A stretch of DNA of 40,226 bases from Phycisphaerales bacterium (GCA_050049715.1 JASFVS010000001.1:1-40226), one strand, 5' to 3'. Shown: positions 1,488-28,405, counted from the stretch's first letter. Notes: a model not told the origin generated them from the sequence alone. A program made the numbers and translations.

Positions 1488-3902
1488 ATGAGTACTTTAT
1501 GGCATGATATTCGATACGGCTTTCGGGCGCTATTAAGAAATCCGGGATTGGCGATGGTAGTGATATTGACGCTGGCATTCAGCATTGGGATTAATATTGC
1601 AGTCTTTACCGTAGTTGATGGTATTTTACTACGTCCGTTGCCCTTTCCTGAATCGGATAAGCTGATATTTATCGGCTATTACCAGGATGGTATGCTGGAT
1701 ACACTCTCAGGGCCCGACTTCCTTGACTGGGAAAACCAGAATCACGTTTTCAAAAATTTATCCGCTTTCACTTTTTCTGACAGAAACCTGACAGGTATCG
1801 ATCGTCCGATGGCTTTGAAGACCTGGAACGTTACGACAAATTATTACCAAACTATGGGTATCGAACCAATTCTGGGCCGCGGTTTCCTACCCGAAGAATC
1901 TATCGAAGGCAATCATCAAGTTGTTATTTTAAACCATGATTTGTGGCAACAAAAATTCGGTGCCAATCCACAGGTAATCGGTAAACATATCACTTTGGAT
2001 GGGGAACCGTACACTGTGGTTGGAGTTGCTCCAGGAAAACAGGGAATAATAGGGCAGATGGCTCAAATCTTAGTCCCCCTAATCAAACAGGAATTAAATC
2101 AAAGTCGGGATTCGCACTCCTACCTGGCAGTGGGAAGGCTCAAATCCGGAATAACCCTGCAACAGGCCCAGGCGGAAATGGATACTATTGTCAGCCGACT
2201 GGAACAGAAGTATCCTAATTCTAATGCGAACTCTCGCGTTGAACTCATGCCTCTACAGAAGATATTGATAAGGGAAGCCGGAGTAATGCTTTGGATTTTA
2301 TTCTCTGCTGTGGGACTGTTTCTTTTAGTCGCAGGTGTGAATGTGGCCAGTATTCTGTTGGCACGCTCAGAAACACGAAGGCCTGAAATAGCTGTGCGCC
2401 GTGCATTGGGGGCCAGCCGGTTCCGTGTAATTAGGCAGATACTCATCGAAAGTCTGGTTTTGTCTGTGCTCGGTGGCGCTGCAGGGTTGCTAATGGGTTA
2501 TTGGGCTGTAACGTATCTGCAGCAAATGTTGCCCAACGAACTTTTCGGCGGTATCCCTCTTTTCGACCAGGTGCAGTTCCATCCTCGCGTACTTGGTTTT
2601 GCATGTATAATTTCGTTAGTAACAGGATTCCTCTTTGGCATTATTCCGGCCTGGCATGCGTCACGACCAACGTTGACAGAGGTTCTCAGGCAGGGGACTC
2701 AGACTGCTCTTGGTGGTTCACGCAGACACGGTTTGCTAAGTATCTTTGTGGGTACGGAAATAGCACTTGCTCTTGTTTTACTCGTTGGTGCCGGTTTACT
2801 CGCAAAAAGTTTTTATCGGTTTCAGCATGTTGAGCCTGGTTTTGACAGTAAACGGATTTTGGCTGTAGAATTGGAACTTCCGGGGCAGGATAAATATAGG
2901 ACACACTATCAACGTTTGGCGTTCTTCAGACAGGCCAAACGACGTATAGCATCCCTTTCAGATGTTATATCGGTTGATTCTATTAATCTTCGTCCATTGA
3001 GTACCTGGAAATCTAATCAGGGTTTCCGGATTGAAGGACGAGCCCCTTTGCCGACAGGGCGACATCAGGCGGCCGAGTACAGGCAGGTCAGTTGGAATTA
3101 CTTTTCCACGATGAAAATGAAATTGAGGTCGGGAAGATTTCTACAGGAAAAAGATGACAATACTAATCCGGTTATGGTGGTGAATGAGGCCTTTGTGTCT
3201 CGTTATTTCCCTGATGAAGAGCCTCTACATAAACACATACTCTTCCGCGGAAGAAATCTGGAGATTGTAGGTGTCGTCGGTAATGTCAAGTCACGCGGTA
3301 TGAGTTTGAACTTAGTAGAACATCCCCCAAAAATGTATGAACCAATAACCCAGGCCTGTAATAACTCTTTTACGATTATGGTCAGGACAATAGGTGATCC
3401 GATGGCATTAGTCGGTCCGGTTCAACAAAAGATCTGGGAGGTTGATGGAGATTTGCCTATTGCCAAGATTCACACTATGAATGAAGTATTATACGAATCC
3501 ATGGCCCTGCAGTATGTCGGGTCTTTATTAATGTGCGTGATAGCATTAGGCGCTCTGCTCCTTGCCGTAATTGGAATTTACGGTCTTTCAGCCTATTCCA
3601 CAAATCAACGTCACCATGAATATGGCATTCGTATGGCCATAGGGGCGCAGAGTAGGGATGTGCATTGGTTAGTGATGAAAAAAGGATTAAAGCTTACCGC
3701 TATAGGTTCGGTTGTCGGCTTAGTGGCTGCATTAGCCTTGGCAAGGGTTTTATCAAGTGTGCTTTATGATATGAGCGTTACGGATCCTGTTATTTTCGTA
3801 GGAATCACGTTGACGTTAATAGTTACAGCTCTTTTAGGCTGCCATATACCGGCCCGGAGAGCAGCGAAAGTTGACCCAATGGAAGCGTTAAGATACGAAT
3901 GA
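1488..3902 (+). CDS. ADOP/MacB-type ABC permease (P2), fused double FtsX with two periplasmic domains, 804 aa
   Basis: The N-terminus is MSTLWHDIRYGFRALLRNPGLAMVVILTLAFSIGINIAVF and the C-terminus is ARRAAKVDPMEALRYE*. An internal duplication is visible: IIPAWHASRPTLTEVLRQG mid-protein mirrors the C-terminal tail. Hydrophobic TM clusters flank two large soluble segments. Confidence 0.9.
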   Translation: MSTLWHDIRYGFRALLRNPGLAMVVILTLAFSIGINIAVFTVVDGILLRPLPFPESDKLIFIGYYQDGMLDTLSGPDFLDWENQNHVFKNLSAFTFSDRNLTGIDRPMALKTWNVTTNYYQTMGIEPILGRGFLPEESIEGNHQVVILNHDLWQQKFGANPQVIGKHITLDGEPYTVVGVAPGKQGIIGQMAQILVPLIKQELNQSRDSHSYLAVGRLKSGITLQQAQAEMDTIVSRLEQKYPNSNANSRVELMPLQKILIREAGVMLWILFSAVGLFLLVAGVNVASILLARSETRRPEIAVRRALGASRFRVIRQILIESLVLSVLGGAAGLLMGYWAVTYLQQMLPNELFGGIPLFDQVQFHPRVLGFACIISLVTGFLFGIIPAWHASRPTLTEVLRQGTQTALGGSRRHGLLSIFVGTEIALALVLLVGAGLLAKSFYRFQHVEPGFDSKRILAVELELPGQDKYRTHYQRLAFFRQAKRRIASLSDVISVDSINLRPLSTWKSNQGFRIEGRAPLPTGRHQAAEYRQVSWNYFSTMKMKLRSGRFLQEKDDNTNPVMVVNEAFVSRYFPDEEPLHKHILFRGRNLEIVGVVGNVKSRGMSLNLVEHPPKMYEPITQACNNSFTIMVRTIGDPMALVGPVQQKIWEVDGDLPIAKIHTMNEVLYESMALQYVGSLLMCVIALGALLLAVIGIYGLSAYSTNQRHHEYGIRMAIGAQSRDVHWLVMKKGLKLTAIGSVVGLVAALALARVLSSVLYDMSVTDPVIFVGITLTLIVTALLGCHIPARRAAKVDPMEALRYE

Positions 3903-3918: not shown

Positions 3919-6345
3919 ATGAGTACTCTAATTAATGACATAAAATACGGTATCAGACAACTCTGGAAGAAGCCCGGTTTTACGGTTGTGGCGGTTTTGA
4001 TTCTGGGTTTGGGTATAGGCGCCAATACGGCTCTGTTTAGCTTAATCCAGGGGGTTTTGTTTAGTCCTTTGCCATTTGAAGACTCGGAAAACTTAGTGTT
4101 TGTGCAAAAGTCCTTTATAGGTCGTGGCCCGGGAGGGTCCTGTTCCGGTCCGGATTATCTGGACTGGGTCGAGCAGAATACGGTGTTTGAGGGATTAGCT
4201 TCTCTTGATATCGGGTATCGCTTGAATTTAACAGGCCAGGGAGAACCCGCGGCTTTGACAGGGGCAAGAGTCAGTACAAATTTCTTTGATGTGTTTGGCA
4301 CACGCGTCGCGCTGGGTCGTAAGTTTCGGAGTGACGAATCCGAGAGCGACAAGCGACACGTTGTAGTGCTGAGTGACCGGTTATGGCACGACCGTTTCGG
4401 TGCGGACCCTGATATTGTCGGTAAAAATATCAATCTCGATAGTGTCCCCTGCACCGTTATCGGCGTAGCGGCCCCAATGATGGGATTCATTGAGGAAATG
4501 ATTCAACTCTATGTCCCAATGCCAATCGATGAACTTCGCAGACACCGCGGCAGTCATTATCTGGATGTGATTGGCCGTTTGAAATCGGACGTATCTATCC
4601 AAGAAGCCCAGGCCCAAATGAATGTCGTATGCGCGCAGATTGAGAAACAACATCCCCGTACCAATAAGGACAAAAGGGTTTACTTGAGTTCTCTTCATAC
4701 CGAACTGATTGGGAGTATTCGGACAGCGTTTTTGGTATTGTATGGAGCTGTTGGATTTCTCTTATTGATCGCCTGTGTTAATGTATCGAATTTACTCTTA
4801 GCCAGAGCGGGAACACGTACGAAGGAAATCGCAGTTCGCAGCGCTCTGGGTGCCGGACGCTGGCGAATTTTTAGACAAATGCTGACAGAAAGCCTGCTTT
4901 TAGCTTTGCTCGGTGGCGCCTTCGGGTTGCTGCTTGGTTTTTGGGGATTGAGCGGCTTAAAGCTCATTGCTCCGGCGGTGTCACCCGATACCGGTGGTAG
5001 TATTCCCGGATTCGATGAGATAAGTCTTAATCCAATGGTCCTGGGATTTACTGTGCTGGTGTCTTTAGTTAGTGGTGTGTTGTTTGGTATGGTTCCGGCC
5101 TGGCACGGTTGTCGTTCTCGAATAATCGAAACGCTGAAACAGGGTGGGCGTTCCCTGTCGGAGGGGCGTTCGCGTCATCGTGCACTCAATATGCTGGTCG
5201 GTACGCAAGTGGCTTTAGCCCTGATTCTCCTGACCGGAGCCGGTTTACTGATTAAGAGCTTTTTTCGGTTACAGCACGTCCATCCCGGATTTGTGGCGGA
5301 TAGAGTTTTGGCCGTCACCCTGGAACGGCCGGATACCGAAAAGAACCGTAGTCTTAGTGAGCGAGTAGCTTTTTACGAACAGGTTGTTGACCGTATCCGT
5401 GCCTTGCCCGGCGTGGAGTGTGCCAGTGCCATCAGCAGGCATCCCATTACGTCCAGTACTAATGATAACGACTTTGGTATCAAGGGTAAAACCTTCCCGG
5501 TGGGTCAATCACCTAATGCGGAATACCGTCAAATTACACCCGATTATTTCAAATGTATGAAAATACCCCTGATCAAGGGTCGAGTGTTTACCCGCGAGGA
5601 TCGCGGCAACGAATCCCACGTTATTATAGTGAATCAGGAATTAGTACGCAGGTATTTCCCTGGCACAGACCCTATCGGACAGTTCCTTCAGATAAACGGC
5701 CGAGACAAAGAGGTAATCGGAGTCGTCGGTAACGTCAAACAGACCAGCCTGAATAGTAATCGCGTACGAACCTTTATGTACGAACCTATTACCCAGAGTT
5801 GCCGACGAGGTATGAGCCTAATGGTTCGTACAGCCGGCAATCCTAACGCTTTGATTAAAGCAATACATCAACAGATCTGGGATATCGATTCCAGTCAGCC
5901 TATTCTGAAAGCGGCTACTATGGAAAATATTATTGCTAATTCCATGTCTGTAGAGCGATTTTGCATGGTCCTGCTGGCCGTTATGGCCGGAGTAGCTTTG
6001 CTGATGGCCGTAGTGGGTCTTTATAGTGTCATGGCCTTTGCCGTTCACGAACGCATTAATGAAATCGGTATCCGCATGGCTTTGGGTGCACAAGCTGGTG
6101 ACATTCTAAAGCTTGTTACGAAACATGGGCTGATTCTAACGCTCATTGGTCTGGCAATCGGTCTGGCAGGGGCCTTCGCCCTCGTGCACTGCCTGTCCGG
6201 CATGCTGTATCAGACCAGTGCTACGGATCCAGTGACATTTGTAATTGTTCCATTAATACTCTTTGTTGTCGCTATGCTGGCCTGTTACCTGCCTGCACGA
6301 CGGGCGGCGAAAATCGATCCAATAAAAACATTAAGATACGAATAA
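3919..6345 (+). CDS. ADOP/MacB-type ABC permease (P3), 808 aa
   Basis: It begins MSTLINDIKYGIRQLWKKPGFTVVAVLILGLGIGANTALFS and ends ARRAAKIDPIKTLRYE*. The architecture matches P2. It starts 16 nt after the P2 stop. Confidence 0.9.
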   Translation: MSTLINDIKYGIRQLWKKPGFTVVAVLILGLGIGANTALFSLIQGVLFSPLPFEDSENLVFVQKSFIGRGPGGSCSGPDYLDWVEQNTVFEGLASLDIGYRLNLTGQGEPAALTGARVSTNFFDVFGTRVALGRKFRSDESESDKRHVVVLSDRLWHDRFGADPDIVGKNINLDSVPCTVIGVAAPMMGFIEEMIQLYVPMPIDELRRHRGSHYLDVIGRLKSDVSIQEAQAQMNVVCAQIEKQHPRTNKDKRVYLSSLHTELIGSIRTAFLVLYGAVGFLLLIACVNVSNLLLARAGTRTKEIAVRSALGAGRWRIFRQMLTESLLLALLGGAFGLLLGFWGLSGLKLIAPAVSPDTGGSIPGFDEISLNPMVLGFTVLVSLVSGVLFGMVPAWHGCRSRIIETLKQGGRSLSEGRSRHRALNMLVGTQVALALILLTGAGLLIKSFFRLQHVHPGFVADRVLAVTLERPDTEKNRSLSERVAFYEQVVDRIRALPGVECASAISRHPITSSTNDNDFGIKGKTFPVGQSPNAEYRQITPDYFKCMKIPLIKGRVFTREDRGNESHVIIVNQELVRRYFPGTDPIGQFLQINGRDKEVIGVVGNVKQTSLNSNRVRTFMYEPITQSCRRGMSLMVRTAGNPNALIKAIHQQIWDIDSSQPILKAATMENIIANSMSVERFCMVLLAVMAGVALLMAVVGLYSVMAFAVHERINEIGIRMALGAQAGDILKLVTKHGLILTLIGLAIGLAGAFALVHCLSGMLYQTSATDPVTFVIVPLILFVVAMLACYLPARRAAKIDPIKTLRYE

Positions 6346-6357: not shown

Positions 6358-7056
6358 ATGATTAAGTTGAAAAACATCGAAAAGTGTTACAAAACCAAAG
6401 CAGGATTTACCTATGTATTGCGGCAAATCACTCTGGATTTCGAAGATGGAGAGTTTGTCACTATCATGGGGCCGTCCGCCGCAGGCAAAACTACATTATT
6501 AAACATCCTCGGTATGCTTGACCACGACTGGGAGGGTGAATACTATCTCGAAGACAATGCGGTGCATGAGCTTAAACCCAAACAGCGTATGGCTTTGAAC
6601 AGGCAGTATGTGGGATTTGTGTTCCAGAACTTTAACCTTCTGGACAGCCTTACGGTTTATGAGAATCTGGATGCGCCCTTGTCCTATCGCAACGTTAAGA
6701 GTTCGGAACGTGCAAGTATTGTCTGCGATACTCTGGACCGTTTTGGAATCGTGGGCAAAAAGGATCTCTATCCAAGTCAGCTTTCCGGCGGTCAGCAACA
6801 ACTCGTAGCCATTGCCCGCGCTGTAGTGGCCAGCCCCAAGCTGATTCTTGCAGACGAACCAACAGGTAATCTGCATTCGTCACAAGGTGAGGAAATTATG
6901 GACCTATTTAAAAGATTGAATCGGGAAGGAACTACTATCATTCAAGTAACCCACTCGGAGAAATATGCCTCATACGGCAAACGTATTATTAAGCTCTCGG
7001 ATGGCTGGATGGATGGGGAAATCACCCCTGAGCAGTTATTAGGAAGGGTAAGTTAG
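6358..7056 (+). CDS. ABC transporter ATP-binding protein (MacB/LolD-type NBD), 232 aa; the only NBD in the array
   Basis: Motifs present: Walker A GPSAAGKTT, Q-loop FVFQNFNLL, signature LSGGQQQ, Walker B LILADEPT, H-loop VTHS. It lies 12 nt after the P3 stop and 3 nt before the P4 start. Confidence 0.93.
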   Translation: MIKLKNIEKCYKTKAGFTYVLRQITLDFEDGEFVTIMGPSAAGKTTLLNILGMLDHDWEGEYYLEDNAVHELKPKQRMALNRQYVGFVFQNFNLLDSLTVYENLDAPLSYRNVKSSERASIVCDTLDRFGIVGKKDLYPSQLSGGQQQLVAIARAVVASPKLILADEPTGNLHSSQGEEIMDLFKRLNREGTTIIQVTHSEKYASYGKRIIKLSDGWMDGEITPEQLLGRVS

Positions 7057-7059: not shown

Positions 7060-9516
7060 ATGGTAAATTTATGGCACGACATCAAGTGCGGTATTCGACA
7101 ATTGCGCAAGTCTCCCGGCTTTACTATCGTAGCCGTACTGACCCTGGCACTCGGTATCGGTGCTAATATTACGATGTTCAGTTTCTTCAATGCCTATCTG
7201 CTTCGTCCCTTGCCGTACCAGGATACCGATCGTATAGTAACAGTGCGAGAGGAGGACAGAAAGACAGGTGACAGACCGCCGAACATTTCGTATGCCGACT
7301 ATCTGGACTGGGCCGAACATAACCAATGCTTTGAAGCATTGGCCTGTTATGGCATTGATGATTATACCCTTACATATCAAGATTCAAAGGAACGCCTCGG
7401 TTGTATAAAGGCCACAGGCAACCTGCTATCTATGCTTGATGTCAAACCTGTTGCTGGCCGGCTCTTTAGGCCAGAGGACGACCAGCCGCAGGCGGAGAGG
7501 ACGGTGATTCTAAGCCATGCACTTTGGCAACGGCGCTTTGGAGGCAGTACTGATGTGCTTGGTGAGTCTATTTTACTCAATGATCTTCCTTATACGGTCA
7601 TCGGTGTGTTACCTGCTTCGTTTGCCTTTCCCTCCTTCCGTCGAGATCCTGTTGACCTATGGACCCCCATGGCACCAATGGCGGTGATAGCTGGAAATGA
7701 GTGGTTTGCTGAGCGGGGTAACTATGGAGGAACCACAGGTATAGGGAAGCTCAAAGCGGGTGTATCCTTACAGCAGGCCCGGGCCGAGATGGATCGGGTA
7801 GCCCGACAATTAGAACAGGCCAATCCAAGATTCAATACGAATAAGGGTATATTCGTAGGATCATTCCACCACCGTCTCGTAGCCAACGTGAAGCCTACGA
7901 TGTTACTATTGATGGGCGCAGTGGCCTGCGTGCTCTTGATTGTATGTGTGAACATCGCCAATTTGGTTTTAATCCGTTCGGCCGTACGCAACCAGGAATT
8001 CGCCGTGCGCAGCGCCCTGGGTGCAGGTCGATGGCGTCTCTTTCGTCAATTGTTCTGCGAGAGCATGTTGTTAGCTGTACTTGGGGGCATAGGAGGACTC
8101 ATACTTGCCTTCTGGAGTTTGGATATCCTTGGCACTATACTGCCGGATAACCTGTCCCACCCTGACGGCAAACGTCTCCTGATGGATGGTCCTATGGTTC
8201 TGTTCCTACTGGGAGCCACAATGGGTACAGCTATGATTTTCGGTTTATTGCCGGCACTGCGGTCATCCCGGGTGGTATTGAGCCGTTCTTATTGGGACAC
8301 GGCACGAAGTGTTACTGCAGGACCGGGCAGCCATCGGTTGCGTAATGCCTTGGTTATTTCCGAGATGGCGCTGGCCTTGATTTTGTTAGTCGGGGCTGGC
8401 TTGCTGCTTCGCAGCTTTGTATACTATCTACGGAGCGACCCCGGATTCGATTCTCAAAAGACCCTGGTTATGAATCTTGATTTGCCTAAGAGGATCGGTC
8501 AATACCCTCCGCAGAAACAGGACTTTTATCGAGAACTCGTTCAACAGATTCAACCTATTGCTGGTGTTGAGTATGTAGGTGCGGCCTCGAATATTCTGGG
8601 GCATTGGGGCCAGACTTACTATGTCGAAGGCAGCCCTATTCTAGGACCCGGTGAAGCCAGTGGGGCCAATATTGGTAATGTCACCCCAGCATTCTTCCAG
8701 TCCATGGGGATTCCGCTTTTGGAGGGACGTTTTTTCACAGAGCACGATCAGCGTGATGCGGCCCTGGTGGCTATCATCGATGAAAAACTGGCGCGTAGAT
8801 GGTGGCCTAATGAAAGCCCTATTGGCAAACGTATACAACGCAACGGGCGGCCTGATCCGAACGATTCCTGGTATGAAGTGGTTGGCGTGGTGGGGCACAT
8901 TAAATATGACGGGGTAGATAGGGAGGCGGGGGAATACCTGTATTTTAGTGCCTATCAGTCCGTCCAGACCTTCTGGGACAGCATGACACTCGTCGTGCGC
9001 AGCGATGGTGATCCCATGCGTCTGGCAGGTGGGATTGGACAAGCAATTGCCGCTGTTGACCAAGAGGTCACAACCGGCAACATTCGCACGTTGCAGACGA
9101 TTGTGGGGGAACAATCCTTCATGCGGCGTTTAATTACAACCGTATTGGGTTTATTCGCAATTACGGCTTTGGTACTTTCCGCCTTGGGCATCTACGGTGT
9201 GATGGCTTATTCCATGTCTCAACGTACTCATGAAATTGGCATCCGCGTGGCCCTGGGAGCCAGCGAAGGTAATATTATTCGTATGACTCTGCGCCAGGGT
9301 ATTAAGCTGGTGCTGGTGGGCGTCAGCCTTGGATTGATAGGAGCCTTAGTTTTGACTCGATTACTTACCGGTTTTCTATTTGGTGTATCCAGCAGAGACC
9401 CGATTACATTATTCACTGTGATTGGTGTATTGGTAATAATAGCTCTCCTGGCCTGTTATGTTCCAGCTCGACGAGCGGCAAAGACTAATCCGATGGAAGC
9501 GCTGAGGTATGAGTGA
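7060..9516 (+). CDS. ADOP/MacB-type ABC permease (P4), 818 aa
   Basis: It begins MVNLWHDIKCGIRQLRKSPGFTIVAVLTLALGIGANITMFS and ends ARRAAKTNPMEALRYE*. It has the same double-FtsX layout. Confidence 0.9.
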   Translation: MVNLWHDIKCGIRQLRKSPGFTIVAVLTLALGIGANITMFSFFNAYLLRPLPYQDTDRIVTVREEDRKTGDRPPNISYADYLDWAEHNQCFEALACYGIDDYTLTYQDSKERLGCIKATGNLLSMLDVKPVAGRLFRPEDDQPQAERTVILSHALWQRRFGGSTDVLGESILLNDLPYTVIGVLPASFAFPSFRRDPVDLWTPMAPMAVIAGNEWFAERGNYGGTTGIGKLKAGVSLQQARAEMDRVARQLEQANPRFNTNKGIFVGSFHHRLVANVKPTMLLLMGAVACVLLIVCVNIANLVLIRSAVRNQEFAVRSALGAGRWRLFRQLFCESMLLAVLGGIGGLILAFWSLDILGTILPDNLSHPDGKRLLMDGPMVLFLLGATMGTAMIFGLLPALRSSRVVLSRSYWDTARSVTAGPGSHRLRNALVISEMALALILLVGAGLLLRSFVYYLRSDPGFDSQKTLVMNLDLPKRIGQYPPQKQDFYRELVQQIQPIAGVEYVGAASNILGHWGQTYYVEGSPILGPGEASGANIGNVTPAFFQSMGIPLLEGRFFTEHDQRDAALVAIIDEKLARRWWPNESPIGKRIQRNGRPDPNDSWYEVVGVVGHIKYDGVDREAGEYLYFSAYQSVQTFWDSMTLVVRSDGDPMRLAGGIGQAIAAVDQEVTTGNIRTLQTIVGEQSFMRRLITTVLGLFAITALVLSALGIYGVMAYSMSQRTHEIGIRVALGASEGNIIRMTLRQGIKLVLVGVSLGLIGALVLTRLLTGFLFGVSSRDPITLFTVIGVLVIIALLACYVPARRAAKTNPMEALRYE

Positions 9517-9540
9517 GACAGAAAACAGAATACAGAAGAC
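9490..9540. repeat. Junction repeat copy 2 (3' end of P4 plus post-stop motif, with an internal ACAGAA duplication)
   Basis: The sequence is CCGATGGAAGCGCTGAGGTATGAGTGAGACAGAAAACAGAATACAGAAGAC. Confidence 0.85.
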
Positions 9541-9620
9541 GAGTGAATCATTCAGTTTTCTTATAAATATTGTCATTGAACCGTTGAAAAGTAAAGCGTT
9601 CACACGATAAGGAGAATTCT

Positions 9621-10190
9621 ATGGATCGTAGAGAGCTCTTAAAACAAACCTGTGGCATGGGTCTATGTGCATGTGCAGGAACCTCCATGTTTGCTTCTGG
9701 ATGTAGTGCAACACAGTCCTCCAATTCCGAGGCAACCGAGGGCGAACCCACCTGGAGACTCCAATGGTGGCTGAGTCATACCCAGAAGCAGTGGGCCAAG
9801 CTCTGGAAGCTGCTGGAATCTCACTTGGATGAAAAGACTCGCGTGGCCATCCTGGAACAGTTGGGAAGGAACTGTGCCGCGAGTTTGGGGTGGGCCAAAC
9901 GATATAAAGGCAATTTTGAAGGTTTCTTCCAGTTCATGAATCAGAAGGCTGGCGAGCAGTTCAACTATGACAAGGACCACAGTGTCATTACCATTACGAC
10001 CCGTGAGCGGGCTTGCGATTGCCGTATGATTAACAATAAGGCCACGCCACCTATTGTTTGCGCTTGCTCGGTAGGCTGGCAGAAGTATACGTATGAGACC
10101 ATCCTTGATAAGAAGGTCGAGGCTGAGGTCAAGGAGTCGGTGTTACGTGGGTCGAAGCGATGCGTATTTGAGGTCCGTGTGGTTTCGTAG
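9621..10190 (+). CDS. Small exported Cys-rich protein of unknown function, 189 aa, with a twin-arginine signal and a possible lipobox
   Basis: The N-terminus MDRRELLKQTCGMGLCACAGTSMFASGC has an RR-x-LLK Tat motif, a hydrophobic core and ASGC at Cys28. The mature part carries C85, a C132-x-C134 ... C147-x-C149 cluster, and C181. A strong SD (AAGGAG) lies 7 nt upstream of the ATG. Confidence 0.7.
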   Translation: MDRRELLKQTCGMGLCACAGTSMFASGCSATQSSNSEATEGEPTWRLQWWLSHTQKQWAKLWKLLESHLDEKTRVAILEQLGRNCAASLGWAKRYKGNFEGFFQFMNQKAGEQFNYDKDHSVITITTRERACDCRMINNKATPPIVCACSVGWQKYTYETILDKKVEAEVKESVLRGSKRCVFEVRVVS

Positions 10191-10228
10191 CCTCCCGTTC
10201 GGAGATTGACAATGGATAAAGGGAAGAA

Positions 10229-12715
10229 ATGAATAGTTTAATCAATAATATTAAATATGCTCTGCGACAATTACGAAAGAAGCCCGGTTTTACTGTTATC
10301 ATAGTTTTAACGCTCGCCCTCGGCATCGGCGCAAACACTGCAATTTTCAATATTGTCAATACTACTTTTCTGCATGACCTGCCTTATGTTGAGTCTGACA
10401 GGCTTGTTTACCTTTCCGAAAGGAATGCACAAGGCAATACATTCCCGATATCGTATCCGAACTTTCTCGACTGGCAGCAACAGGATGTCTTTAGCGGGCT
10501 CGCGATATTTCACGGCGCAGAAGGTAAGCTGAATACCGAGCAAGGTATGGAGATAATGTCGGTGCTGAATGTCTCCTCAGATTTCTTTAATGTGCTATGT
10601 GTGCAACCGGCTCAGGGGCGCGGCATGCAGCCGGAGGATGATATCCCAGGTTCTGAACGGGTGGCTTGGATTACGAACGATGCCTGGCAGCGATTTTTCA
10701 GTGGTAATCCCGATATCGTGGGCCGCTCTTTCGAGTTTGACGGGCGGAATATCACTATTGTCGGTATTCTTCCTGCGAGTTTCCGATTTCACCAGCGGGC
10801 AGACCTCATAACGGCTATCGCACCGTTTGCCAAGGAATTCTTCCTCGACATGCGGGAGAGCCGCAGTAATGAATATGCAGTCGCTCGTCTTAAGCCTGGA
10901 ATTAGCATAGAGGCCGCAAAGGCGCAGATGGACGCGATCGCGATTCGTCTGGCCGAAGAACATCCCGTGGCCAACAAGGGCATTGGCATATCGACTGTTC
11001 CGCTACGTGAGCAACTTGCAGGTAGCGCGCGTGCGCAGCTTTTTCTGCTGCTTGGTGCGGTCGGCCTTGTACTGCTTATCGCATGTGCCAATGTAGCAAA
11101 CATGCTACTGGCACGCTCTTTCGCTCGCGAACGAGAGATGGCAATACGCACTTCACTCGGCGCGTCACGAATGCATCTGTTGCGGCAGTTACTCGTAGAA
11201 AGTCTCGTGCTCGCAGCAGCTGGTGGTGCTGCTGGTGCTATTGTAGGCTTGTGGGGTTATGGATTTGCCAGCCGTATGGTGCCTTTTCAGGTTCAGCAAG
11301 TAATCGATGGGGGAGGCTTTGATCTACGGACACTTCTTTTCATTGTCGGTATCACTATGGTTACCGGTGTAGTTTTTGGATTGGCTCCGGCCTGGCAACT
11401 TTCGCACGTCCTACCGGTCGAATCGCTTAAGCAGACTACGCGCGACAAACGCAAAATTTTCTGTCGCATCGGATTGAATGACCTGCTCGTTGTCGGGCAG
11501 GTGTCGCTGGCGCTGGTGCTGCTTATCGGGGCCGGCCTGATGATTCGCAGTCTGAACCGCCTGCTGAATGTTGAGACGGGATATGAACCAACCCGCGTAC
11601 TGACCCTTGAGGTGACGTCACCACCGATAGAACAATTCCAGCGCGATCCCGGTATTTTCACACGTCATTATGAGAAGGTGCTCGAGCCCGTCCAGAACAT
11701 GGTTGAGGTTGAGGCTGCGGCCGTTGCTTCGGGTATGCCTTTCACTTTCAGCACGAATAACATGACGTTCTATCGTAGGGATTTGCCCGTACCCGCGGCA
11801 GGCGAGTTTCCTATGGCCAGCAGTCATACAGTAAGTCCGGATTACTTTAGAGCTATGGGCATTCCCTTACTACACGGTCGTGTCTTTGATGGGACAGAAC
11901 CGGCTTACGTTATTCCGCCGGGAATGGAATTGACACCGCAGAACCTCGCCGCCATTTTTAAGGATGTCACCTTCTCCGCTGTTATAAGTAAGAAGATGGC
12001 CGATACTTTCTGGCCCGGGGAAGATCCAATCGGCAAACAATTTCGTCTCGGTTTTCCAGACCTCGGTCTTCCTTGGGTAGATGTTATTGGAGTAGTAGGT
12101 AATACCATACAGACAGGACTCGACCGCGGGGAAGCCACCGAGTTTTATCTGTCACTGCGTCAATGGCCGGTACCCGTTAACATGCATCTGTTGGTCCGCA
12201 CGCAACTCGAACCCAATGCTATTGTCAATTCTGTGCGAACCGCTGTCTCATCGGTAATGCCTGACGAACCTGTCCGTGATGTCCGGGTACTTGCTGAGCG
12301 AATCGACAACTCGACCGTCGGGCGCCGTTTCAACCGGAACCTTTTCGCTTGCTTTGCGACAACGGCACTTGTGCTCGCATTGGTTGGCCTTTACGGCGTA
12401 CTTGCCTTCAACATTAGTCGCCGCACTCGCGAGATTGGTATCCGCATGGCACTCGGTGCCAATCGTCTCGATATTATTTGCAGCGTTGTCGGAAGGGGGC
12501 TCGTTCTTGTTGTGCCCGGTTTGGTTATTGGTCTTGTATGCGCATGGGCAGTTGGTCGTGTACTGCAAAGCCAGCTTTTCGAAATCAAGAGCAGTGATCC
12601 GCTTACCTATGCAATCGGTGCATTGCTGATGATTTTCACTGCGGTAGTTGCCTGCTTGATACCAGCCTGCCGCGCATCTCGAATAGATCCGATGGAGGCG
12701 CTGAGGTATGAGTGA
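10229..12715 (+). CDS. ADOP/MacB-type ABC permease (P5), 828 aa
   Basis: It begins MNSLINNIKYALRQLRKKPGFTVIIVLTLALGIGANTAIFN and ends ACRASRIDPMEALRYE*. It has the double-FtsX layout. Confidence 0.9.
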   Translation: MNSLINNIKYALRQLRKKPGFTVIIVLTLALGIGANTAIFNIVNTTFLHDLPYVESDRLVYLSERNAQGNTFPISYPNFLDWQQQDVFSGLAIFHGAEGKLNTEQGMEIMSVLNVSSDFFNVLCVQPAQGRGMQPEDDIPGSERVAWITNDAWQRFFSGNPDIVGRSFEFDGRNITIVGILPASFRFHQRADLITAIAPFAKEFFLDMRESRSNEYAVARLKPGISIEAAKAQMDAIAIRLAEEHPVANKGIGISTVPLREQLAGSARAQLFLLLGAVGLVLLIACANVANMLLARSFAREREMAIRTSLGASRMHLLRQLLVESLVLAAAGGAAGAIVGLWGYGFASRMVPFQVQQVIDGGGFDLRTLLFIVGITMVTGVVFGLAPAWQLSHVLPVESLKQTTRDKRKIFCRIGLNDLLVVGQVSLALVLLIGAGLMIRSLNRLLNVETGYEPTRVLTLEVTSPPIEQFQRDPGIFTRHYEKVLEPVQNMVEVEAAAVASGMPFTFSTNNMTFYRRDLPVPAAGEFPMASSHTVSPDYFRAMGIPLLHGRVFDGTEPAYVIPPGMELTPQNLAAIFKDVTFSAVISKKMADTFWPGEDPIGKQFRLGFPDLGLPWVDVIGVVGNTIQTGLDRGEATEFYLSLRQWPVPVNMHLLVRTQLEPNAIVNSVRTAVSSVMPDEPVRDVRVLAERIDNSTVGRRFNRNLFACFATTALVLALVGLYGVLAFNISRRTREIGIRMALGANRLDIICSVVGRGLVLVVPGLVIGLVCAWAVGRVLQSQLFEIKSSDPLTYAIGALLMIFTAVVACLIPACRASRIDPMEALRYE

Positions 12716-12760: not shown

Positions 12761-15177
12761 ATGAGCACTTTAATCAACGACATCAAATACGGTGTCAGAC
12801 AACTCTGGAAGAGTCCCGGTTTTACCATCGTAGCTGTACTGACGCTCGGACTTGGCATTGGGGCTACCGCCACACTTTTTAGTGTTTTCAAGGCATGGGT
12901 TTTCAATCCGTTTCCATATCCTAGTTCAGACCGAATTGTTCATGTTTGGTCAAACGTTTCCAAAAATGGCGAGGGGCCGCTCTCTGCGCCCGACTTCCTT
13001 GATATTAGAGAGAGAAATAAATCATTTTCTGATATTGCGGCTTATACTCTCGAGCGGGTTGACCTTGGAGGTGACAAACCGGAATCTATACATGCTGTCC
13101 GTAGTACAGCCGGGTTGCTACGTGTATTTGGGGTGCAGCCTGTACTGGGGCGGTTTTTCGACAAGGCCGATGAGGATAATTCTGATTCGACACATGTGGC
13201 TATTATCAGTTATGGATTGTGGAAAAGGCTTTTCGCCTGCGACCGGGAGGTTATTGGGAAGACTGTGCGCTTGAATAGACAGGAGACTACGATTGTAGGT
13301 GTTATGCCTGCGAATTTTGAATTCTACACATCTCGACATGGAGGCCGTAGCTACGAAATCTGGCGGCCTCGTGCGTTGAGGTCACAAAATAGAGGACCTC
13401 AATGGTTATTATGTATGGCACGGTTAAAGGAGGGAGTGAGCTTCGAAGCAGCAGAAGCTGAAATCAAGATGATTGGTTTACAACTCAAAGCAGAGTATCC
13501 TGACACAAACCAATCCAAACCGTTTTGTCTGCGTTCACATCACGAAGAGATAACCCGTAACGCTAAGTCCAGCATGTGGTTTCTTTTCGCAACTGTAGTG
13601 CTGTTACTTCTTATTGCATGTGCAAACGTTGCCAGCATGCTGCTGGCCAGAGGTACTAAAAGACAGGCTGAATTCTCTTTGCGTTTTGCTATTGGGGCAC
13701 AACGTTCGGATATGCTAAGACTCTTATTTACTGAAAGTTTCCTGTTGGCGCTTTTGGGCAGCGTTTCAGGTATTTTGCTGGCTGCATTTGGTTTAGCTTT
13801 TGTTAAGCATTTCATTCCGCAGGCAGCGGTTCTTGAATCACAAAGGCTTGCTCTGCAAATAGATGGAATAGTCCTGATGTTCTCGATTGGTCTGGCTGTA
13901 CTAACAGCTTTGTTGTTTGGTTTGCTGCCTGCTTTTACGGCGGCGCAAAGCAACGTTACTGAGATGATTAAACAAGGCGGCCGATCACAAGCCAGCTCAC
14001 GAATCAGATATCGATTCCTTCGATACCTGGTGGTCGGGCAAATAGCTTTAGTTCTTGCTATTGCGAATTGTTCGATACTGCTTTCAAAAAGCTATCTTAA
14101 TGTTATGAATATAAATAAAAAACTTATTTCAGAGCATGTTCTGACATCAAATATCATTCTGCGCGGTGAGCACTATAATAATGCCGAATCCAGGGAACAA
14201 TTCTGGAACCAGTTAATCGAACATACCGGTGCCTTGTCCGGAGTCAGCCATGCCGCGATTGTAACAAATATGCCTCTTGAGGGTAGCTTCAGTTGCCTAA
14301 TCATCCAAAACGAAAAGTCCGTTGATCCTTCACAGTATCGTTTGCAGCCGCTCGCGGAAATAAGCTATATCTCACCTGACTATTTCATGAGTATGGGAAT
14401 TCCATTTATACAGGGGCGGTCTCCACGGAAGATTGACAGCGAAGATGAGTTTATTGGTGTTGCCGTAAATCGTGCTCTCGTTAAGGCATTGTGGCCCGGG
14501 CAGGACCCTATTGGCAAATTGTTTAAGCCTCCTTTTCCGGATCCGTTTTTCAAAGCAAAAGTTATAGGTGTGGTCGAAGATGTCAGGCAATGGGGCCCAG
14601 AAATACCAGCACTGCCACAGATATATTTCCCGTTTCAGAGTGGTCGTATGAACAGAGGTACATTGGTGATGCGTACGAATGCAAAAGCAAATGCTTTTGT
14701 TCCATTGCTCAGGCAGGAGCTGGCTAATATCGATCCTGATTTGCTTCTGGTTGATATAAGTACCATGAAGCAGGTCGTAGAAAGCTCAACCAGCGGCCGA
14801 CGGTTTTATACGTTTGCCACTAATGCTTTCATGAGTATTGCTTTAGCTATTACAGTAGTCGGTATATACGGCACGCTTTCCTATAACCTCACGCAGCGCA
14901 AACGTGAGATAGGTGTGCGTATCGCTCTGGGCGCATTACGCTGTGATATTATTCGCTTTGTTGTTCGGCAGGCATTGCCGGACTGGCCATTGGACTGACA
15001 CTCACAGCGGTACTGTCCTTTGTCTTGCGTTCCCTTGTATATGATATCAGCCCTTTAAATCCGCTGTCATTATTGCTTGGATTAGGCGTCATAGGCGGAG
15101 TTTCGTGCCTGGTGTGTCTTATTCCCGCTATTGGCGCAACACGAATCGACCCGATGGAAGCATTAAGATATGAATGA
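12761..15177 (+). pseudogene. ADOP/MacB-type ABC permease (P6) interrupted by a frameshift near 14970 (true pseudogene or assembly error)
   Basis: The ORF 12761-14998 (MSTLINDIKYGVRQLWKSPGFTIVAVL...) ends abnormally in ...RFVVRQALPDWPLD*. The missing last TM helices and family tail are intact in the -1 frame at 14974-15177: IAGLAIGLTLTAVLSFVLRSLVYDISPLNPLSLLLGLGVIGGVSCLVCLIPAIGATRIDPMEALRYE*. The junction CGGCAGGCATTGCC looks like CAG-GGC that has lost one G. Confidence 0.75.
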
Positions 15178-16838
15178 GAGTTTTTATGAGAAACAATGAA
15201 ATAAAAGAACAGAAGAGTATGTGGTTGGTACGCCATCAAACAGTTTTAGTATCAATTATCCTTATTATCATAGCGGGTTGTTCGACTTCGCACATTGAAG
15301 AGGAGGCAAACAACAAAGCCATGATAATGGGGCTCGATAAAATTGATACCGTGCAGCTTTCGGAGCATTCGGTATCATCTCCTGTAACTGTTGAACAAGC
15401 GACCGAAGAAATCACTCAACAGGTTACGGACTCTAATGAATCTCAACAAACAATAACTTTAAGCCTGGAACAAGTTCGAGAGGCCGCTTTAGCAAATAAT
15501 CTTGACTTAAAAGTCGAGCTTGTAGATCCTTCCATTGTCCAGACCGCACTGGATGAAGAGCGAGCCAAGTTCGAGGCGGCTTTCTTCGGCTCAGCAGAAA
15601 CTCAGCGAAGCAAAACTGCTACTGCTGTTACCAAAACCCAGGATTATGAATTAAGCATTGAAAAGCCATTGCCGACCGGCGGATTGATTGAAGTCGGTCT
15701 GCCTTTTGGTGATGACATGTCCTCAGGCGGTGTTGCGGATGCGGCCGCCAGCGTCTCTGTTATACAATCCTTGCTCCGCGGGGCCGGCACGCGTATAAAT
15801 ACGCAGTCTATTCGTATTGCCGGTCACGAAAGAAATATCATCAATGCCAGAACCAAACTTGTAGCTATTTATTTACTCGCCAGTGCTGATATTGCGTATT
15901 GGCGTCTTTACGCGGCCCGTAAAGAACTCGATGTTCGCAGAGAGCAATACAAGCTGGCACAGGACCAGCTTAATCACGCGAAGAAGAAAGTTGCTGCGGG
16001 TTCGGCTGCAAAAATCGAAATCGTACGAGCGGAAGCAGGTTTATCCGGTCGTCTCGAAGCTGTGATTAATGCTGAAACTACGGTGCTGAATCGAACTCGC
16101 GATATTCAACGCATCATGAATCGTGACGACATGCCTTTAGAGGCCGTTGTGGATATTGTGACACAGACTGAGCCAAATCCGCTTGGACTGGGCCTTGACG
16201 AAAGGCAACTTACCGAGCAGGCCTTGTCTAACCGAATGGAAATGGTTGAGCTGGAACTGCAATTAACCATTGATGAACTCAATGTTGAGCTGGCACGCAA
16301 CAATACCCTGCCCGATTTGGCGTTGAATTACACCTATGCAGCCCAGGCGCAGGAAAGCACTATAGGTGGTGCTTTAGGGGACCTGACGGATAATCCGTTT
16401 GATAGCCATTCAGTCGGCCTGTCTGTTGCTGTCCCCTTGGGTAACCGTGTTGCTAAAGCTCGCCTCCAACGGGCCCAGCTTTTAAAAATGCAGGATCAGG
16501 TAAGACGCAACAGACTCCAACAGCTTATTCGACAGGAAGTTTATAATGCAGTCAGTGAGTTACGTGGGAACTGGCGTCGTATTCTTGCTGCGGAACAGGG
16601 TGTGACCGCCGCATACAGGGATTACAAGGTCGAACAATCTCAATTTCAACTTGGTGTCCGTACAAGTACGGACGTTCTATACTCTGCTACCCGTCTAGCG
16701 GACGCACAGCTTGGCAGAATACGTGCCTTCACGGATTATGAAATAGCCCAGATATACCTGGCACAGGCTACCGGCACTCTTTTAGGAAAAGGACAAATCC
16801 AGATAGCCTCTGTGGATATCGATGACAGTCTCCCTTAA
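15174..16838 (+). CDS. TolC/NodT-type outer-membrane efflux lipoprotein (OMF), up to 554 aa
   Basis: There is a lipoprotein signal ...MWLVRHQTVLVSIILIIIAGC with lipobox IAGC. OEP-type repeats are present (LSLEQVREAALANNLDLKVELVDPSIVQTALDEERAKFEAAFFG; LPDLALNYTYA). The ATG at 15174 overlaps the TGA of the P6 C-terminal fragment (ATGA). Alternative starts exist at 15186 and 15219. Confidence 0.85.
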   Translation: MRVFMRNNEIKEQKSMWLVRHQTVLVSIILIIIAGCSTSHIEEEANNKAMIMGLDKIDTVQLSEHSVSSPVTVEQATEEITQQVTDSNESQQTITLSLEQVREAALANNLDLKVELVDPSIVQTALDEERAKFEAAFFGSAETQRSKTATAVTKTQDYELSIEKPLPTGGLIEVGLPFGDDMSSGGVADAAASVSVIQSLLRGAGTRINTQSIRIAGHERNIINARTKLVAIYLLASADIAYWRLYAARKELDVRREQYKLAQDQLNHAKKKVAAGSAAKIEIVRAEAGLSGRLEAVINAETTVLNRTRDIQRIMNRDDMPLEAVVDIVTQTEPNPLGLGLDERQLTEQALSNRMEMVELELQLTIDELNVELARNNTLPDLALNYTYAAQAQESTIGGALGDLTDNPFDSHSVGLSVAVPLGNRVAKARLQRAQLLKMQDQVRRNRLQQLIRQEVYNAVSELRGNWRRILAAEQGVTAAYRDYKVEQSQFQLGVRTSTDVLYSATRLADAQLGRIRAFTDYEIAQIYLAQATGTLLGKGQIQIASVDIDDSLP

Positions 16839-16898: not shown

Positions 16899-18143
16899 TT
16901 ACGAAATGGTTTGTGGGGAGTATATGTTGTCGAACAAAACCTGAACTTGAATCTGGTTGTTTTCTTCGAAACGCTCCATACATTCAGGAATTTTAATCAG
17001 CGCATTTGCATTTGCTTGGGTTTGGATGCGGCTGTTCATTTTAAGGGGACTGACGAATAACTTATCATCCTTTTCCGTGAGTTTTGCATAAATAAACTGA
17101 GTCCAGTCTATATCGCCTTTCACTGCTGTGGTTAATGTTGCTGTTTTGTGTTCAAAAGGTACGGGCGACCTGCCTGCCAGATGAAATAAACCGGGTAAAG
17201 CGATTTGCAGGAAGGCCATTTCATTAGATGGAGGGCCGCCGGGAAGACAGAATACGGTTTTATCATTCAACGTAATCATTGCCACCGCCTTGCCGGGACC
17301 CATTCTGATGCGGTGGAAGATAATTTTACCGCCCATTTCGGTAAATGTTTTTACGGTCAAATCCCGGTCACTTTTCCATACACCGCCGCTGGTTGTAATG
17401 ACATCGTTGTGTTCCAGCATATTCTGTATAGTGTTGCGGAGTTTTTCTTTTTGGTCCGGGACTATTGCAATTTCAGCTTCCATCCTGAAATGTCGAAGCC
17501 ATGAAAGTAACGTCACCGAGTTACTTGCATAGAGCTGGCCCTCTTTGAGCGGTTTGCCGGGAGCAACTACCTCATCCCCTATGGCAATAATACCGGTTCG
17601 GGGTAATTTGTGGACTCGTACAGCGTCGAGTCCCCCCGCGGCTATCAGGCCGGTTTTAGCTGGCGTCAAAATCTCGCCGCGTTGTGCAATAAGTTCTCCC
17701 TTTTTGACATCGTATCCTTGCTCTAATATATTTCTTTTCAGGCTGTTATCCTGGTGGCAGAATACCCATCCATTTTGTTCCTTGGTAAGCTCTTCGGGAA
17801 TGACTGTGTCGGCGCCGTGGGGTAGTCTTGAGCCTGTGAGAATTTTGACGGCCATTCCTGATTCTACAGTTAAATCTGCTTGGCCCCCTGCGACCATTTG
17901 GCCCAAAACTTTCAGTTTAGCGGGCCGGTCTTTTGAGGTGTTTTTTAAATCTGCAGAAGACACGGCATAGCCATCTTTCAAAGATGTCTGAGTGGAGGGG
18001 CAGTCCACGACGGCGATACAGTCTTCGGCCGCAGTTAATCCTGATACCTGTTCGACAGGAAGGCTGACAGGAGTAAGCGGTTTCAATTGCTCTAACATTC
18101 TTGAAAATGCTTCTTCGAAACCGATATCGTATTTAGCACTCAT
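16899..18143 (-). CDS. moeA: Molybdopterin molybdenumtransferase MoeA, 414 aa
   Basis: MoeA-type motifs are present: SLKDGYAV, ILTGSRLPHGADTVIPEE, TTSGGVWKSDRD, IRMGPGKAV, CLPGGPPS. Confidence 0.85.
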   Translation of the reverse strand: MSAKYDIGFEEAFSRMLEQLKPLTPVSLPVEQVSGLTAAEDCIAVVDCPSTQTSLKDGYAVSSADLKNTSKDRPAKLKVLGQMVAGGQADLTVESGMAVKILTGSRLPHGADTVIPEELTKEQNGWVFCHQDNSLKRNILEQGYDVKKGELIAQRGEILTPAKTGLIAAGGLDAVRVHKLPRTGIIAIGDEVVAPGKPLKEGQLYASNSVTLLSWLRHFRMEAEIAIVPDQKEKLRNTIQNMLEHNDVITTSGGVWKSDRDLTVKTFTEMGGKIIFHRIRMGPGKAVAMITLNDKTVFCLPGGPPSNEMAFLQIALPGLFHLAGRSPVPFEHKTATLTTAVKGDIDWTQFIYAKLTEKDDKLFVSPLKMNSRIQTQANANALIKIPECMERFEENNQIQVQVLFDNIYSPQTIS

Positions 18144-18195: not shown

Positions 18196-18990
18196 TTAAA
18201 ATATATCTTTACGCCGTCGTAATTCTGCAAAGACTTCCGCCGCCGGTGCATTGAGCATATTCAATGCAGACCTTAGCTCGGAAAAGTCAGCTCGTAAAAA
18301 CGGATTTGTTTCTTTTTCCCGCAATATTGTGGAAGGTACGGTTGGTTTGCCTGCTTTTTGCGCCTGCTTGAGTTCGTTCAGATATTTTTGGACAGCTTGA
18401 TTACCCGGCTCAATACTCAATGCGAATTTGTAATTTTCCAGCGTATAATCGTGCCCACAATAGACAAGTGTATCATCAGGTAAAGATGCTAATTTTTGTA
18501 AAGAATTCCACATTGAAGACGCGTCGCATTCGAATAATCTGCCACAGCCCCCAATGAACAATGTGTCACCTGTCCAAAGGATACCATTTTCCTTTTCGTT
18601 CGACGGCGGAATATAATAGCACACCGATGTGTGGGTGTGTCCCGGCGCGGCAATTACCTGTATCTTTACGTTGCCAATTTCTAATATTTGTATATCTTCG
18701 GCAAAGCAATCAACGTTTTTTATTCTTTGTTTATCGGGACCGATGACCCTGCAGGAAGTTTTTTTCTTTAGTTCTGCAGTTCCTCCGGTATGGTCCCAGT
18801 GATTATGTGTAAGAAGAATGGTGGTAAGGTTCAATTTGTGTTTTTTTAGTGCTCTGAATACCGAAGAACTTTCTCCGGGGTCAATTACAAATGCCTCACT
18901 CTGGTTATATCGATACAGGTAGATGTAGTTATCACCAAGTGCTGATATGGTGATTACCGGGTCCGTAGCTTTTGAATAATCAGACAACAT
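18196..18990 (-). CDS. gloB: Hydroxyacylglutathione hydrolase (glyoxalase II, MBL fold), 264 aa
   Basis: Glyoxalase II motifs are present: THNHWDHTGG, PGHTHTS, GDTLFIGGCGRLFE, CGHDYTLEN, and the C-terminal NPFLRAD. Confidence 0.88.
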   Translation of the reverse strand: MLSDYSKATDPVITISALGDNYIYLYRYNQSEAFVIDPGESSSVFRALKKHKLNLTTILLTHNHWDHTGGTAELKKKTSCRVIGPDKQRIKNVDCFAEDIQILEIGNVKIQVIAAPGHTHTSVCYYIPPSNEKENGILWTGDTLFIGGCGRLFECDASSMWNSLQKLASLPDDTLVYCGHDYTLENYKFALSIEPGNQAVQKYLNELKQAQKAGKPTVPSTILREKETNPFLRADFSELRSALNMLNAPAAEVFAELRRRKDIF

Positions 18991-24255: not shown

Positions 24256-24327
<72 letters not shown>

Positions 24328-24467
24328 AAATGCAAGCGGGTCAAGCCGGGCTGGTTTTGTAACTCCGGTTGTGAATTGATTATAAAAGGTTTTTAGAGAA
24401 TTTTGTAAGAGAGTTAAATATTGGGATAAGTCAATATTAATCCTTTACATTGGAGGTTTATATTAAG

Positions 24468-25682: not shown

Positions 25683-25823
25683 GCATCTCTGGGTGACTTC
25701 TAAAGGAAACTACGAGTACCCAAAATTAGAGTGCTCAGACCGGCTAAGTGTATCCGGGCAGGTATATATGGAACAATTAGATGTTTCTTAGGTGAATGAA
25801 CCTGTCTGGCGGGGATGAACTTT

Positions 25824-28374: not shown

Positions 28375-28405
28375 TAGTAAAATACGCAATGTGGGATTAT
28401 AGAAA

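Follow-up and report, generated by a model that had tools for sequence, protein, structure and literature searches.

What does a small, cysteine-rich protein with a twin-arginine-like N-terminus do in the middle of an array of permease genes? This question is raised by a stretch of 40,226 nucleotides from a Phycisphaerales bacterium (GCA_050049715.1, JASFVS010000001.1:1-40226), which at its full length is referred to as the window. The gene under study is the open reading frame (ORF) 9621..10190 on the + strand, which has an ATG start and encodes a protein of 189 amino acids (aa); its translation agrees exactly with the sequence quoted in an earlier, sequence-only reading. That reading had taken the product for a periplasmic, possibly lipid-anchored cofactor protein functionally tied to the MacB-like array around it. 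On balance, and with moderate confidence, we favour an exported, stand-alone, metal-binding protein with a V4R/Bet3/DUF6144 fold, whose gene is a strain-specific insert in the array.

A strain-specific insertion between two permease genes

Comparison with syntenic arrays shows that the gene is carried by a ~700-bp insert, specific to the strain, that separates two ADOP/MacB-type permease genes, and that it is not a conserved component of the array. The closest relative of the permease encoded downstream, P0245 (94% identical), lies in locus L083, where the gene order (804, 808, ATPase 232, 819, 828) is that of the window, the two permease genes are 13 nt apart and the family gene is absent. 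By blastn, window 9301-9512 aligns with L083 9744-9955 (93.9%) and window 10212-10500 with L083 9959-10247 (85%). The segment 9513..10211 (+ strand), made up of the spacer, the ORF and the 21 nt that follow it, is therefore extra in the window, where L083 has positions 9956-9958. Two further arrays (L085 and L086, 81-82% identical) also lack the gene, and in the assembly GCA_964556885.1 the array L085 and a family member (L009) lie on separate contigs in different contexts. The segment is present, on the other hand, in L087 and L088, which come from two other samples and are 99.7% identical to the window across it. Since the arrangement of the window recurs there, we are dealing with a presence/absence polymorphism and not with an assembly error.

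The gene cassette is thus seen to be polymorphic between very close relatives from neighbouring metagenome samples. Window and L083 also differ more strongly over the opening 23 codons of the downstream permease gene, where the first block has 49/60 identical positions, than elsewhere, where ~57/60 agree.

A divergent DUF6144-related protein with a predicted V4R/Bet3 fold

ORF 9621-10190 is a real gene and not a chance ORF, because it has 96 homologous clusters (E <= 1e-3, identity down to 41%), 1204 representatives at E<=1e-3 (411 at 1e-10) in a profile search of a 50%-identity library, and a confident AlphaFold2 (AF2) model. The 1204 representatives are nearly all single-domain proteins of ~185 aa, and the family ranges over Planctomycetota, Verrucomicrobiota, Acidobacteriota, Bacteroidota and Bacillota. 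An antisense ORF at 9663-9980 (- strand, 105 aa), which recurs in 46 loci, was rejected as a gene, as its recurrence is due to its overlap with the conserved coding sequence and to nothing else.

Compared with the Pfam family DUF6144 (PF19641), the window protein gives E=0.018 and 15.4 bits, aa 131-184, in its Cys-rich C-terminal half, being aligned to profile positions 118-173. Taken alone, this speaks against membership, as the gathering cut-off is 28.8 bits. The same comparison for 99 diverse family members (E<=0.01) yields 74 matches to DUF6144 (best 1e-17), 15 to MetOD1, 10 to V4R, 3 to BcsD and 2 to ATC hydrolase, and precomputed PF19641 matches are found on the homologues P0003, P0021, P0036 and P0049. 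Homology to DUF6144 is established through these intermediates, and the resemblance to uncharacterised DUF proteins noticed earlier thereby receives a name. The window protein itself showed no match to Pfam V4R (PF02830) at E<=10, nor to the profiles of MetOD1 (PF18546) and ATC hydrolase (PF14196), and over its whole length it matched no NCBIfam family. Many homologues are labelled 'predicted hydrocarbon binding protein' by the Joint Genome Institute, which is the description used for COG1719; our literature search found no mention of DUF6144.

The AF2 model of the window protein (m0252dc49d35f, built on 92 sequences) has a predicted local distance difference test score (pLDDT) of 87.5 overall, of 92-99 at residues 44-189 and below 50 at residues 11-34. 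The confident part, aa 44-189 (9750..10187, + strand), is modelled as an alpha/beta domain with helices 44-65, 71-89, 91-94, 99-110 and 144-162 and strands 113-117, 122-126, 166-172 and 182-187. Foldseek searches against the PDB place TRAPPC3/Bet3 first (E=3e-6, template modelling (TM) score ~0.5), including the Thorarchaeota TRAPPC3 7yh3, followed by the phenol-sensor domains of MopR (5kbh), PoxR (5fru/5frw) and DmpR (6iy8) at E ~7e-4 and the V4R protein MJ1460 (2oso) at E 1e-3; BcsD and YslB are matched too. For TRAPPC3, PoxR, MopR, DmpR, MJ1460 and BcsD the Foldseek probability is 1.00, with TM scores of 0.45-0.52. A search of a viral structure library gave nothing below E=0.03. Model and matches agree on the two-layer alpha/beta arrangement of the superfamily, in which N-terminal helices pack on a 4-stranded sheet.

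On the strength of this model, the window protein is predicted to belong to the V4R/Bet3/H-NOX-like superfamily of small-ligand-binding domains. Read together, the DUF6144 matches across the family and the Foldseek matches identify it as a divergent DUF6144-type member of that superfamily; its close subfamily is a divergent branch of this catalogued, uncharacterised family, within a known fold superfamily.

As side observations on the family, tandem or near-tandem duplicates of the gene occur in L019, L024, L032, L049 and L051. A set of large ORFs that clustered with the family was rejected from it: these are GH2-type enzymes joined to it via one read-through ORF in L051.

The domain cysteines and a putative metal site

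The window protein has N-terminal cysteines at C11, C16, C18 and C28 and, in its mature part, C85, C132, C134, C147, C149 and C181; its C-terminus is RCVFEVRVVS. The six mature-part cysteines, the C132-x-C134 and C147-x-C149 pairs and the terminal RCVFEV of the sequence-only reading were thus all correctly described. The two pairs (10014..10067, + strand) form a cluster that we predict to be a Zn-type knuckle. The codon of C85 (9873..9875, + strand) belongs to an invariant G82-R83-x-C85 on helix 71-89, as judged from the alignments, and that of C181 (10161..10163, + strand) stands at the start of the last strand, in RCVFEV.

We aligned 278 members to the family profile, including distant ones and those of 75 genome loci. 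All six domain cysteines are kept in 270 of them. In the close family (alignments A1 and A2), no substitution is seen at G82, R83, C85, C132, C134, C147, C149, G152, W153 and Q154, and at least 90% of the members retain C181; in the wide alignment A3 the invariant domain residues are almost only Cys and Gly. Such near-exclusive invariance of Cys and Gly is typical of a metal-stapled scaffold. In the AF2 model, the loop that follows strand 122-126 holds C132-x-C134; this loop (127-143) is without secondary structure and is nevertheless modelled at a pLDDT of 96-98. C147-x-C149 opens helix 144-162.

Previous studies of the superfamily suit this placement. Thor-TRAPPC3 binds Zn via four cysteines, as does PoxR, and its sheet is thereby tethered to helix D, giving a cavity (PMC10933270). 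A conserved Cys cluster is common to V4R, MetOD1 and ATC hydrolase (PMC5847659), and in MsvR the V4R-domain cysteines are redox-active and drive a redox-dependent conformational change (PMC3729527). By analogy, C132, C134, C147 and C149 most likely form a structural Zn(Cys)4-type knuckle. PDB sequence searches with the family profiles A2 and A3 and with the distant member P0218 gave chance matches only and no mapping of the Zn site. The earlier proposal of a metal- or Fe-S-type cofactor therefore holds in part: the cofactor idea is supported, because the six cysteines are kept in nearly all members, and the fold superfamily has a Cys-ligated Zn site. The identity of the metal, for its part, is inferred.

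The N-terminal region and probable export

The signal-like region (aa 1-28; 9621..9704, + strand) consists of MDRRELLK and 20 uncharged residues, among which are the four N-terminal cysteines, and is a probable twin-arginine translocation (Tat) signal. It is followed by a polar low-complexity linker (aa 29-43; 9705..9749, + strand) of variable length and sequence (gapped columns 38-65 of A1) and of low pLDDT. The Tat consensus S/T-R-R-x-F-L-K with an uncharged hydrophobic (h-) region is matched by D-R-R-E-L-L-K and the 20 uncharged residues. In the close subfamily the N-terminus reads M-x-R-R-x-L/F-L-K, and in more distant members mostly M-[DN]-R-K-x-F-L-K. We examined 221 Met-starting family sequences, many of them fragments, for this motif: 77 have RR, 60 RK and 13 KR (150/221), and the remainder are mostly fragments. 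After the [RK][RK]xFLK motif come 16-18 uncharged, moderately hydrophobic residues (median) and then the variable polar linker. The same organism has canonical Tat signals on two Gfo/Idh/MocA enzymes.

The best NCBIfam match of the N-terminus is TAT_signal_seq. Several results weigh against a Tat signal of the usual kind, and we gather them here. The window protein scores 14.8 bits with TIGR01409, where the cut-off is 16.7, and does not match Pfam TAT_signal (PF10518), while the Tat controls of the same window reach 26.9 bits (TIGR01409) and 21.3 and 19.0 bits (PF10518). The h-region has a conserved Cys motif that is missing from ordinary signal peptides, and its cysteines number 3.26 on average in the family against 0.44 in other Tat-like N-termini from the same fetched loci. 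Furthermore, Bacillota-type members without RR and without the hydrophobic stretch (P0057, P0070, P0081, P0082, P0084 and P0085) retain a CxxCxxxC motif, which hints that the N-terminal cysteines have a role in the protein itself. Taking both sides into account, we consider export by the Tat pathway likely from the sequence. Twin-arginine export, as first proposed, is thus backed by a motif and an uncharged stretch kept across phyla and is left short by the profiles, one sub-threshold and the other without a match. The lipid anchor fares worse. Set against the lipobox [LVI][ASTVI][GAS]C, FASG-C28 of the window protein fits a looser PROSITE-type pattern, and a lipobox-like match at the equivalent of Cys28 is found in only ~9/189 full-length members (27/221 for the loose pattern anywhere); the lipobox is not conserved, and the lipoprotein reading is weak.

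The cysteines of the signal-like region form a motif of their own, FLKxxCxxGxCxCA, which is family-specific and kept across phyla at 25-35% domain identity. At least three N-terminal cysteines are present in 211/278 members, while 36/278 have none; members of the latter kind show plain h-regions rich in Gly and Ala. AF2 did not dock the N-terminal cysteines on the domain, either in the window protein (pLDDT <50) or in the signal-less P0081 (53-63); at such low confidence the models lend no support either way. It is quite doubtful, though worth stating, that the signal Cys triad is functional, either by ligating a metal or Fe-S cluster in the precursor as a pre-export checkpoint or by providing the thiols of an uncleaved anchor. 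If true, this would be a new type of coupling between signal peptide and cofactor in a widespread, uncharacterised exported family of V4R fold.

A similar N-terminus, MNRKQFLKNAVGILCFCAVTGMLASG, was observed on an unrelated esterase-like neighbour of a family gene (L038 8509-9414); among 18 examined Tat-like N-termini, no other one from outside the family has two Cys.

Proposed mode of action

For the exported, stand-alone metal-binding protein that we favour, the following course may be proposed. The pre-protein would consist of three parts, namely a twin-arginine-type signal (RRELLK and 20 uncharged residues), a short polar linker and a 145-residue alpha/beta domain. The domain would fold and take up its metal in the cytoplasm, where the four cysteines of CxC-x12-CxC, where strand 2 meets helix D, would act as ligands. 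The bound metal, with Zn(Cys)4 the likeliest site, as in PoxR/MopR and Thor-TRAPPC3, would staple the sheet to helix D and shape an internal ligand cavity, and C85 and C181 are candidates to line this cavity or to form a second site. The folded domain would then be exported by Tat and would serve in the periplasm as a stand-alone small-ligand binder or sensor, holding its ligand in the cavity enclosed by the sheet and the layer of helices.

The gene within the permease array

In the window the gene is surrounded by transport genes. A family scan identifies MacB_PCD+FtsX permeases at 13-1449 (partial), 1488-3902, 3919-6345, 7060-9516, 10229-12715 and 12761-14998, an ABC ATPase at 6358-7056 and an OEP/TolC-like gene at 15174-16838. 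The gene under study is the only non-transporter gene among them, as the sequence-only reading had noticed. Its Shine-Dalgarno (SD) sequence AAGGAG (9609..9614, + strand, 6 nt before the ATG) gives the best match among the nine array genes, the others being of GGGAAG or AGGAAG types, which confirms that it is the strongest in the region. The gap from the stop of the 7060-9516 permease to the ORF measures 104 nt and that downstream 38 nt. An apparent gap of 175 nt ahead of the OEP gene (15174) is an artefact, because a frameshift in the last permease moves its canonical C-terminus into another frame, which runs to ~15170; the claim that no other intergenic gap in the array is as large as these 104 nt can therefore be upheld. 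The GC content at third codon positions is 0.60 in the ORF vs 0.43-0.52 in its neighbours.

In the 104-nt gap we found no sigma-70-like promoter site on the + strand, no Rfam match (riboswitch or RNA element) and unremarkable RNA folding (z=-1.2), and there is no terminator-like site anywhere in 9300-10500. As neither promoter nor terminator is detectable, the ORF is probably co-transcribed with the array, being read through from it with the aid of its own strong SD.

The frameshift of the last ADOP/MacB-type permease (window 12761-15170) was observed near 14950-14998. The called ORF ends in ...RQALPDWPLD and a stop, and the canonical C-terminus (...IDPMEALRYE, ...GATRIDPMEALRYE, each before a stop) is found in another frame that ends at ~15170, just before the OEP start at 15174. 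This permease is either a pseudogene or the product of a sequencing error.

Gene neighbourhoods and alternative readings

We surveyed the neighbours of family members in the 75 genome loci, whose ORFs were taken by an all-ORF approach, with Pfam scans of the proteins at positions +-1 (135 proteins), +-2 (118) and, as a control, +-5/6 (150). At +-1 and +-2, MacB_PCD/FtsX falls outside the 25 commonest families, and at +-5/6 it accounts for 4/150 proteins; there is no enrichment of MacB/FtsX next to family members. The 135 immediate neighbours represent 108 families, each in at most six loci, and no conserved partner or pathway genes were found beside family members among the 75 loci. The commonest families at +-1 are GH2_N (6), GH106 (4) and GDSL (6), none of which appears in the top lists at +-2 or +-5/6.

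These data bear on two readings that tie the gene to its neighbours. According to one, which was the proposal of the sequence-only reading, the protein serves the MacB-like/ADOP array as its dedicated partner in the periplasm, in the role of substrate receptor, sensor or substrate-modifying subunit. The gene does share its strand with the array that surrounds it, is set off from its neighbours by short gaps only and is probably co-transcribed with them, and a MacB/FtsX gene is found within 10 kb of a family member at six loci besides the window (L032, L034, L037, L052, L063 and L073). Genomes of the phyla concerned, however, carry many MacB/FtsX-type permease genes, and six loci in 75 fit chance. 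Above all, the gene is missing from the syntenic arrays L083, L085 and L086, lies on another contig than the orthologous array in GCA_964556885.1 and has homologues at 58-74% identity that are not next to permeases; those at 70-74% adjoin ClpX, a GH2-like gene or a cupredoxin. As the syntenic arrays lack the gene and MacB/FtsX is not enriched beside family members, there is no conserved linkage to ABC permeases, an outcome that the sequence-only reading itself had named as refuting the link: comparative genomics largely refutes the partnership, and we regard it as most improbable. The other reading has the family act with exported glycan-degrading enzymes (GH2/GH106/GH29, SGNH esterases), for example as an accessory binding protein. 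The commonest immediate neighbours named above suit it, and GH2-type or GH106 genes adjoin the family gene in Pirellulales (L005, L006, L012, L015 and L077), Verrucomicrobiota (L037, L046, L051 and L053), Acidobacteriota (L029) and Bacteroidales (L068). The adjacency, though spread over several phyla, concerns less than ~12% of loci, varies in orientation and side and does not occur in the window; as a large part of the loci derives from closely related metagenome-assembled genomes (MAGs), the counts are not independent, and the phyla concerned are rich in carbohydrate-active enzymes. We take it as a lead and not as a finding, and the reading itself as scarcely probable at all.

Two further alternatives concern the protein rather than its neighbours. 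The N-terminus might be no export signal, in which case the protein would be cytoplasmic and CxxGxCxC/CxxCxxxC would be a tethered metal or Fe-S motif working with the domain. This would account for an N-terminal Cys motif that is family-specific and conserved across phyla, for the three cysteines kept by Bacillota-type members that have neither RR nor a hydrophobic stretch, and for the sub-threshold Tat profiles. We nevertheless regard it as unlikely, given that in many of the 36/278 members that lack N-terminal Cys a plain signal-like h-region follows RKxFLK, that charge, 16-18 uncharged residues and a polar linker follow each other in the typical layout of a signal peptide, and that AF2 leaves the cysteines undocked in both the window protein and P0081. 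It is also conceivable, and in our judgement very unlikely, that the domain is not a passive binder and acts instead as an enzyme (an ATC-hydrolase-like C-S hydrolase) or as a thiol redox sensor (an MsvR-like switch via C85/C181). Pointing this way are the 2/99 matches to ATC_hydrolase and the 15/99 to MetOD1, for which a related enzymatic activity has been suggested (PMC5847659), the redox-dependent conformational change mediated by the V4R cysteines of MsvR (PMC3729527) and the two extra invariant cysteines, C85 and C181, outside the CxC-CxC cluster. On the other side, the near-invariance of the wide family (A3) at only Cys and Gly provides no acid/base or nucleophile set beyond Cys, and the survey revealed no conserved neighbouring pathway genes.

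Some neighbourhoods are recorded here in their own right. Upstream of the family gene, the Pirellulales MAGs encode an SGNH/GDSL esterase, a PP-loop ATPase and a GH29 fucosidase. In Verrucomicrobiota (L034, L038, L045, L047, L053 and L063) the family gene directly follows a DUF3788 gene (139 aa) and lies within tandem arrays of 4-6 paralogues of ~400-550 aa, which fuse an extracytoplasmic function (ECF) sigma factor (Sigma70_r2/r4), a transmembrane segment and a LamG/concanavalin-like domain. A few genes upstream, L034, L037 and L063 also have an ABC ATPase and two split MacB/FtsX permeases.

The wider window

Downstream of the array, MoeA (16899-18143) and glyoxalase II (18196-18990) lie between it and a conserved core cluster. 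A DUF6807 gene (19986-20954), whose product has an N-terminus that looks like a lipoprotein signal, adjoins the pair of divergent Gfo/Idh/MocA oxidoreductases at 21027-22448 (- strand) and 22607-23932 (+ strand), which have the canonical Tat signals TRRQFLKNSAAVAG... and NRRVFLKGSLASG.... The core cluster extends from 24256 to 40226, the end of the window, and contains tRNA-Thr, tuf, tRNA-Trp, secE, nusG, rplK, rplA and rplL, identified by ARAGORN or Pfam; a candidate rplJ (28406-28939) and candidate rpoB and rpoC, the large ORFs 29643-33479 and 33531-37832, are assigned from position only. With this cluster nearby, the array is therefore on the chromosome, beside housekeeping genes.

Significance and comparison with known systems

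The analysis removes a tempting but wrong inference, that of a dedicated Cys-rich periplasmic partner for ADOP/MacB arrays, and supplies a structural and family assignment for a widespread uncharacterised DUF6144-related family (~1200 clusters at 50% identity). A literature search on V4R with twin-arginine returned nothing relevant and no exported V4R protein; to our knowledge and from our search, it would be the first described case of a V4R/Bet3 ligand-binding fold that is exported and stands alone. The concrete features are the six invariant cysteines and the family-specific Cys motif of the signal region; in other respects the gene is an ordinary accessory one. Only one of its features, the conserved and Cys-rich signal-like segment, might represent new biology.

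Among known systems, the best structural matches are TRAPPC3/Bet3 (7yh3, 6aq3 and 1sz7; E 3e-6 to 4e-4), with a sequence identity of only 10-18%. Unlike these, the window protein is bacterial, of exported type and stand-alone, and has no vesicle-tethering context. MetOD1 (PF18546) and ATC hydrolase (PF14196), matched by 15/99 and 2/99 family members, have the Cys cluster of the superfamily in common with it; methanogen response regulators use MetOD1 as an output domain, ATC hydrolase is a cytoplasmic enzyme, and both are without a signal peptide.

With Tat-exported metalloproteins as a general class, the window protein shares an RRxLLK after a short n-region, a mildly hydrophobic stretch of 20 residues and a metal-type Cys cluster. 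A Tat-type signal together with such a cluster suits cytoplasmic folding before export. The h-region of the family is, unlike that of the usual Tat metalloproteins, unusually rich in Cys, conserved in sequence and sub-threshold in profile score, and its distant members mostly have RK in place of the Tat RR.

The V4R and phenol sensors (PoxR, MopR and DmpR; MJ1460) have the same fold (E 7e-4 to 1e-3, TM ~0.47), with a Cys-ligated Zn site of their own near the junction of the sheet and helix D and an internal ligand pocket. V4R sensors are, as far as known, cytoplasmic, whereas the window protein has a signal-like N-terminus, and it lacks the fused AAA+/helix-turn-helix output module of the phenol sensors. 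In place of their three-Cys(+Glu) pattern, the window protein has six invariant cysteines, CxC-x12-CxC with C85 and C181.

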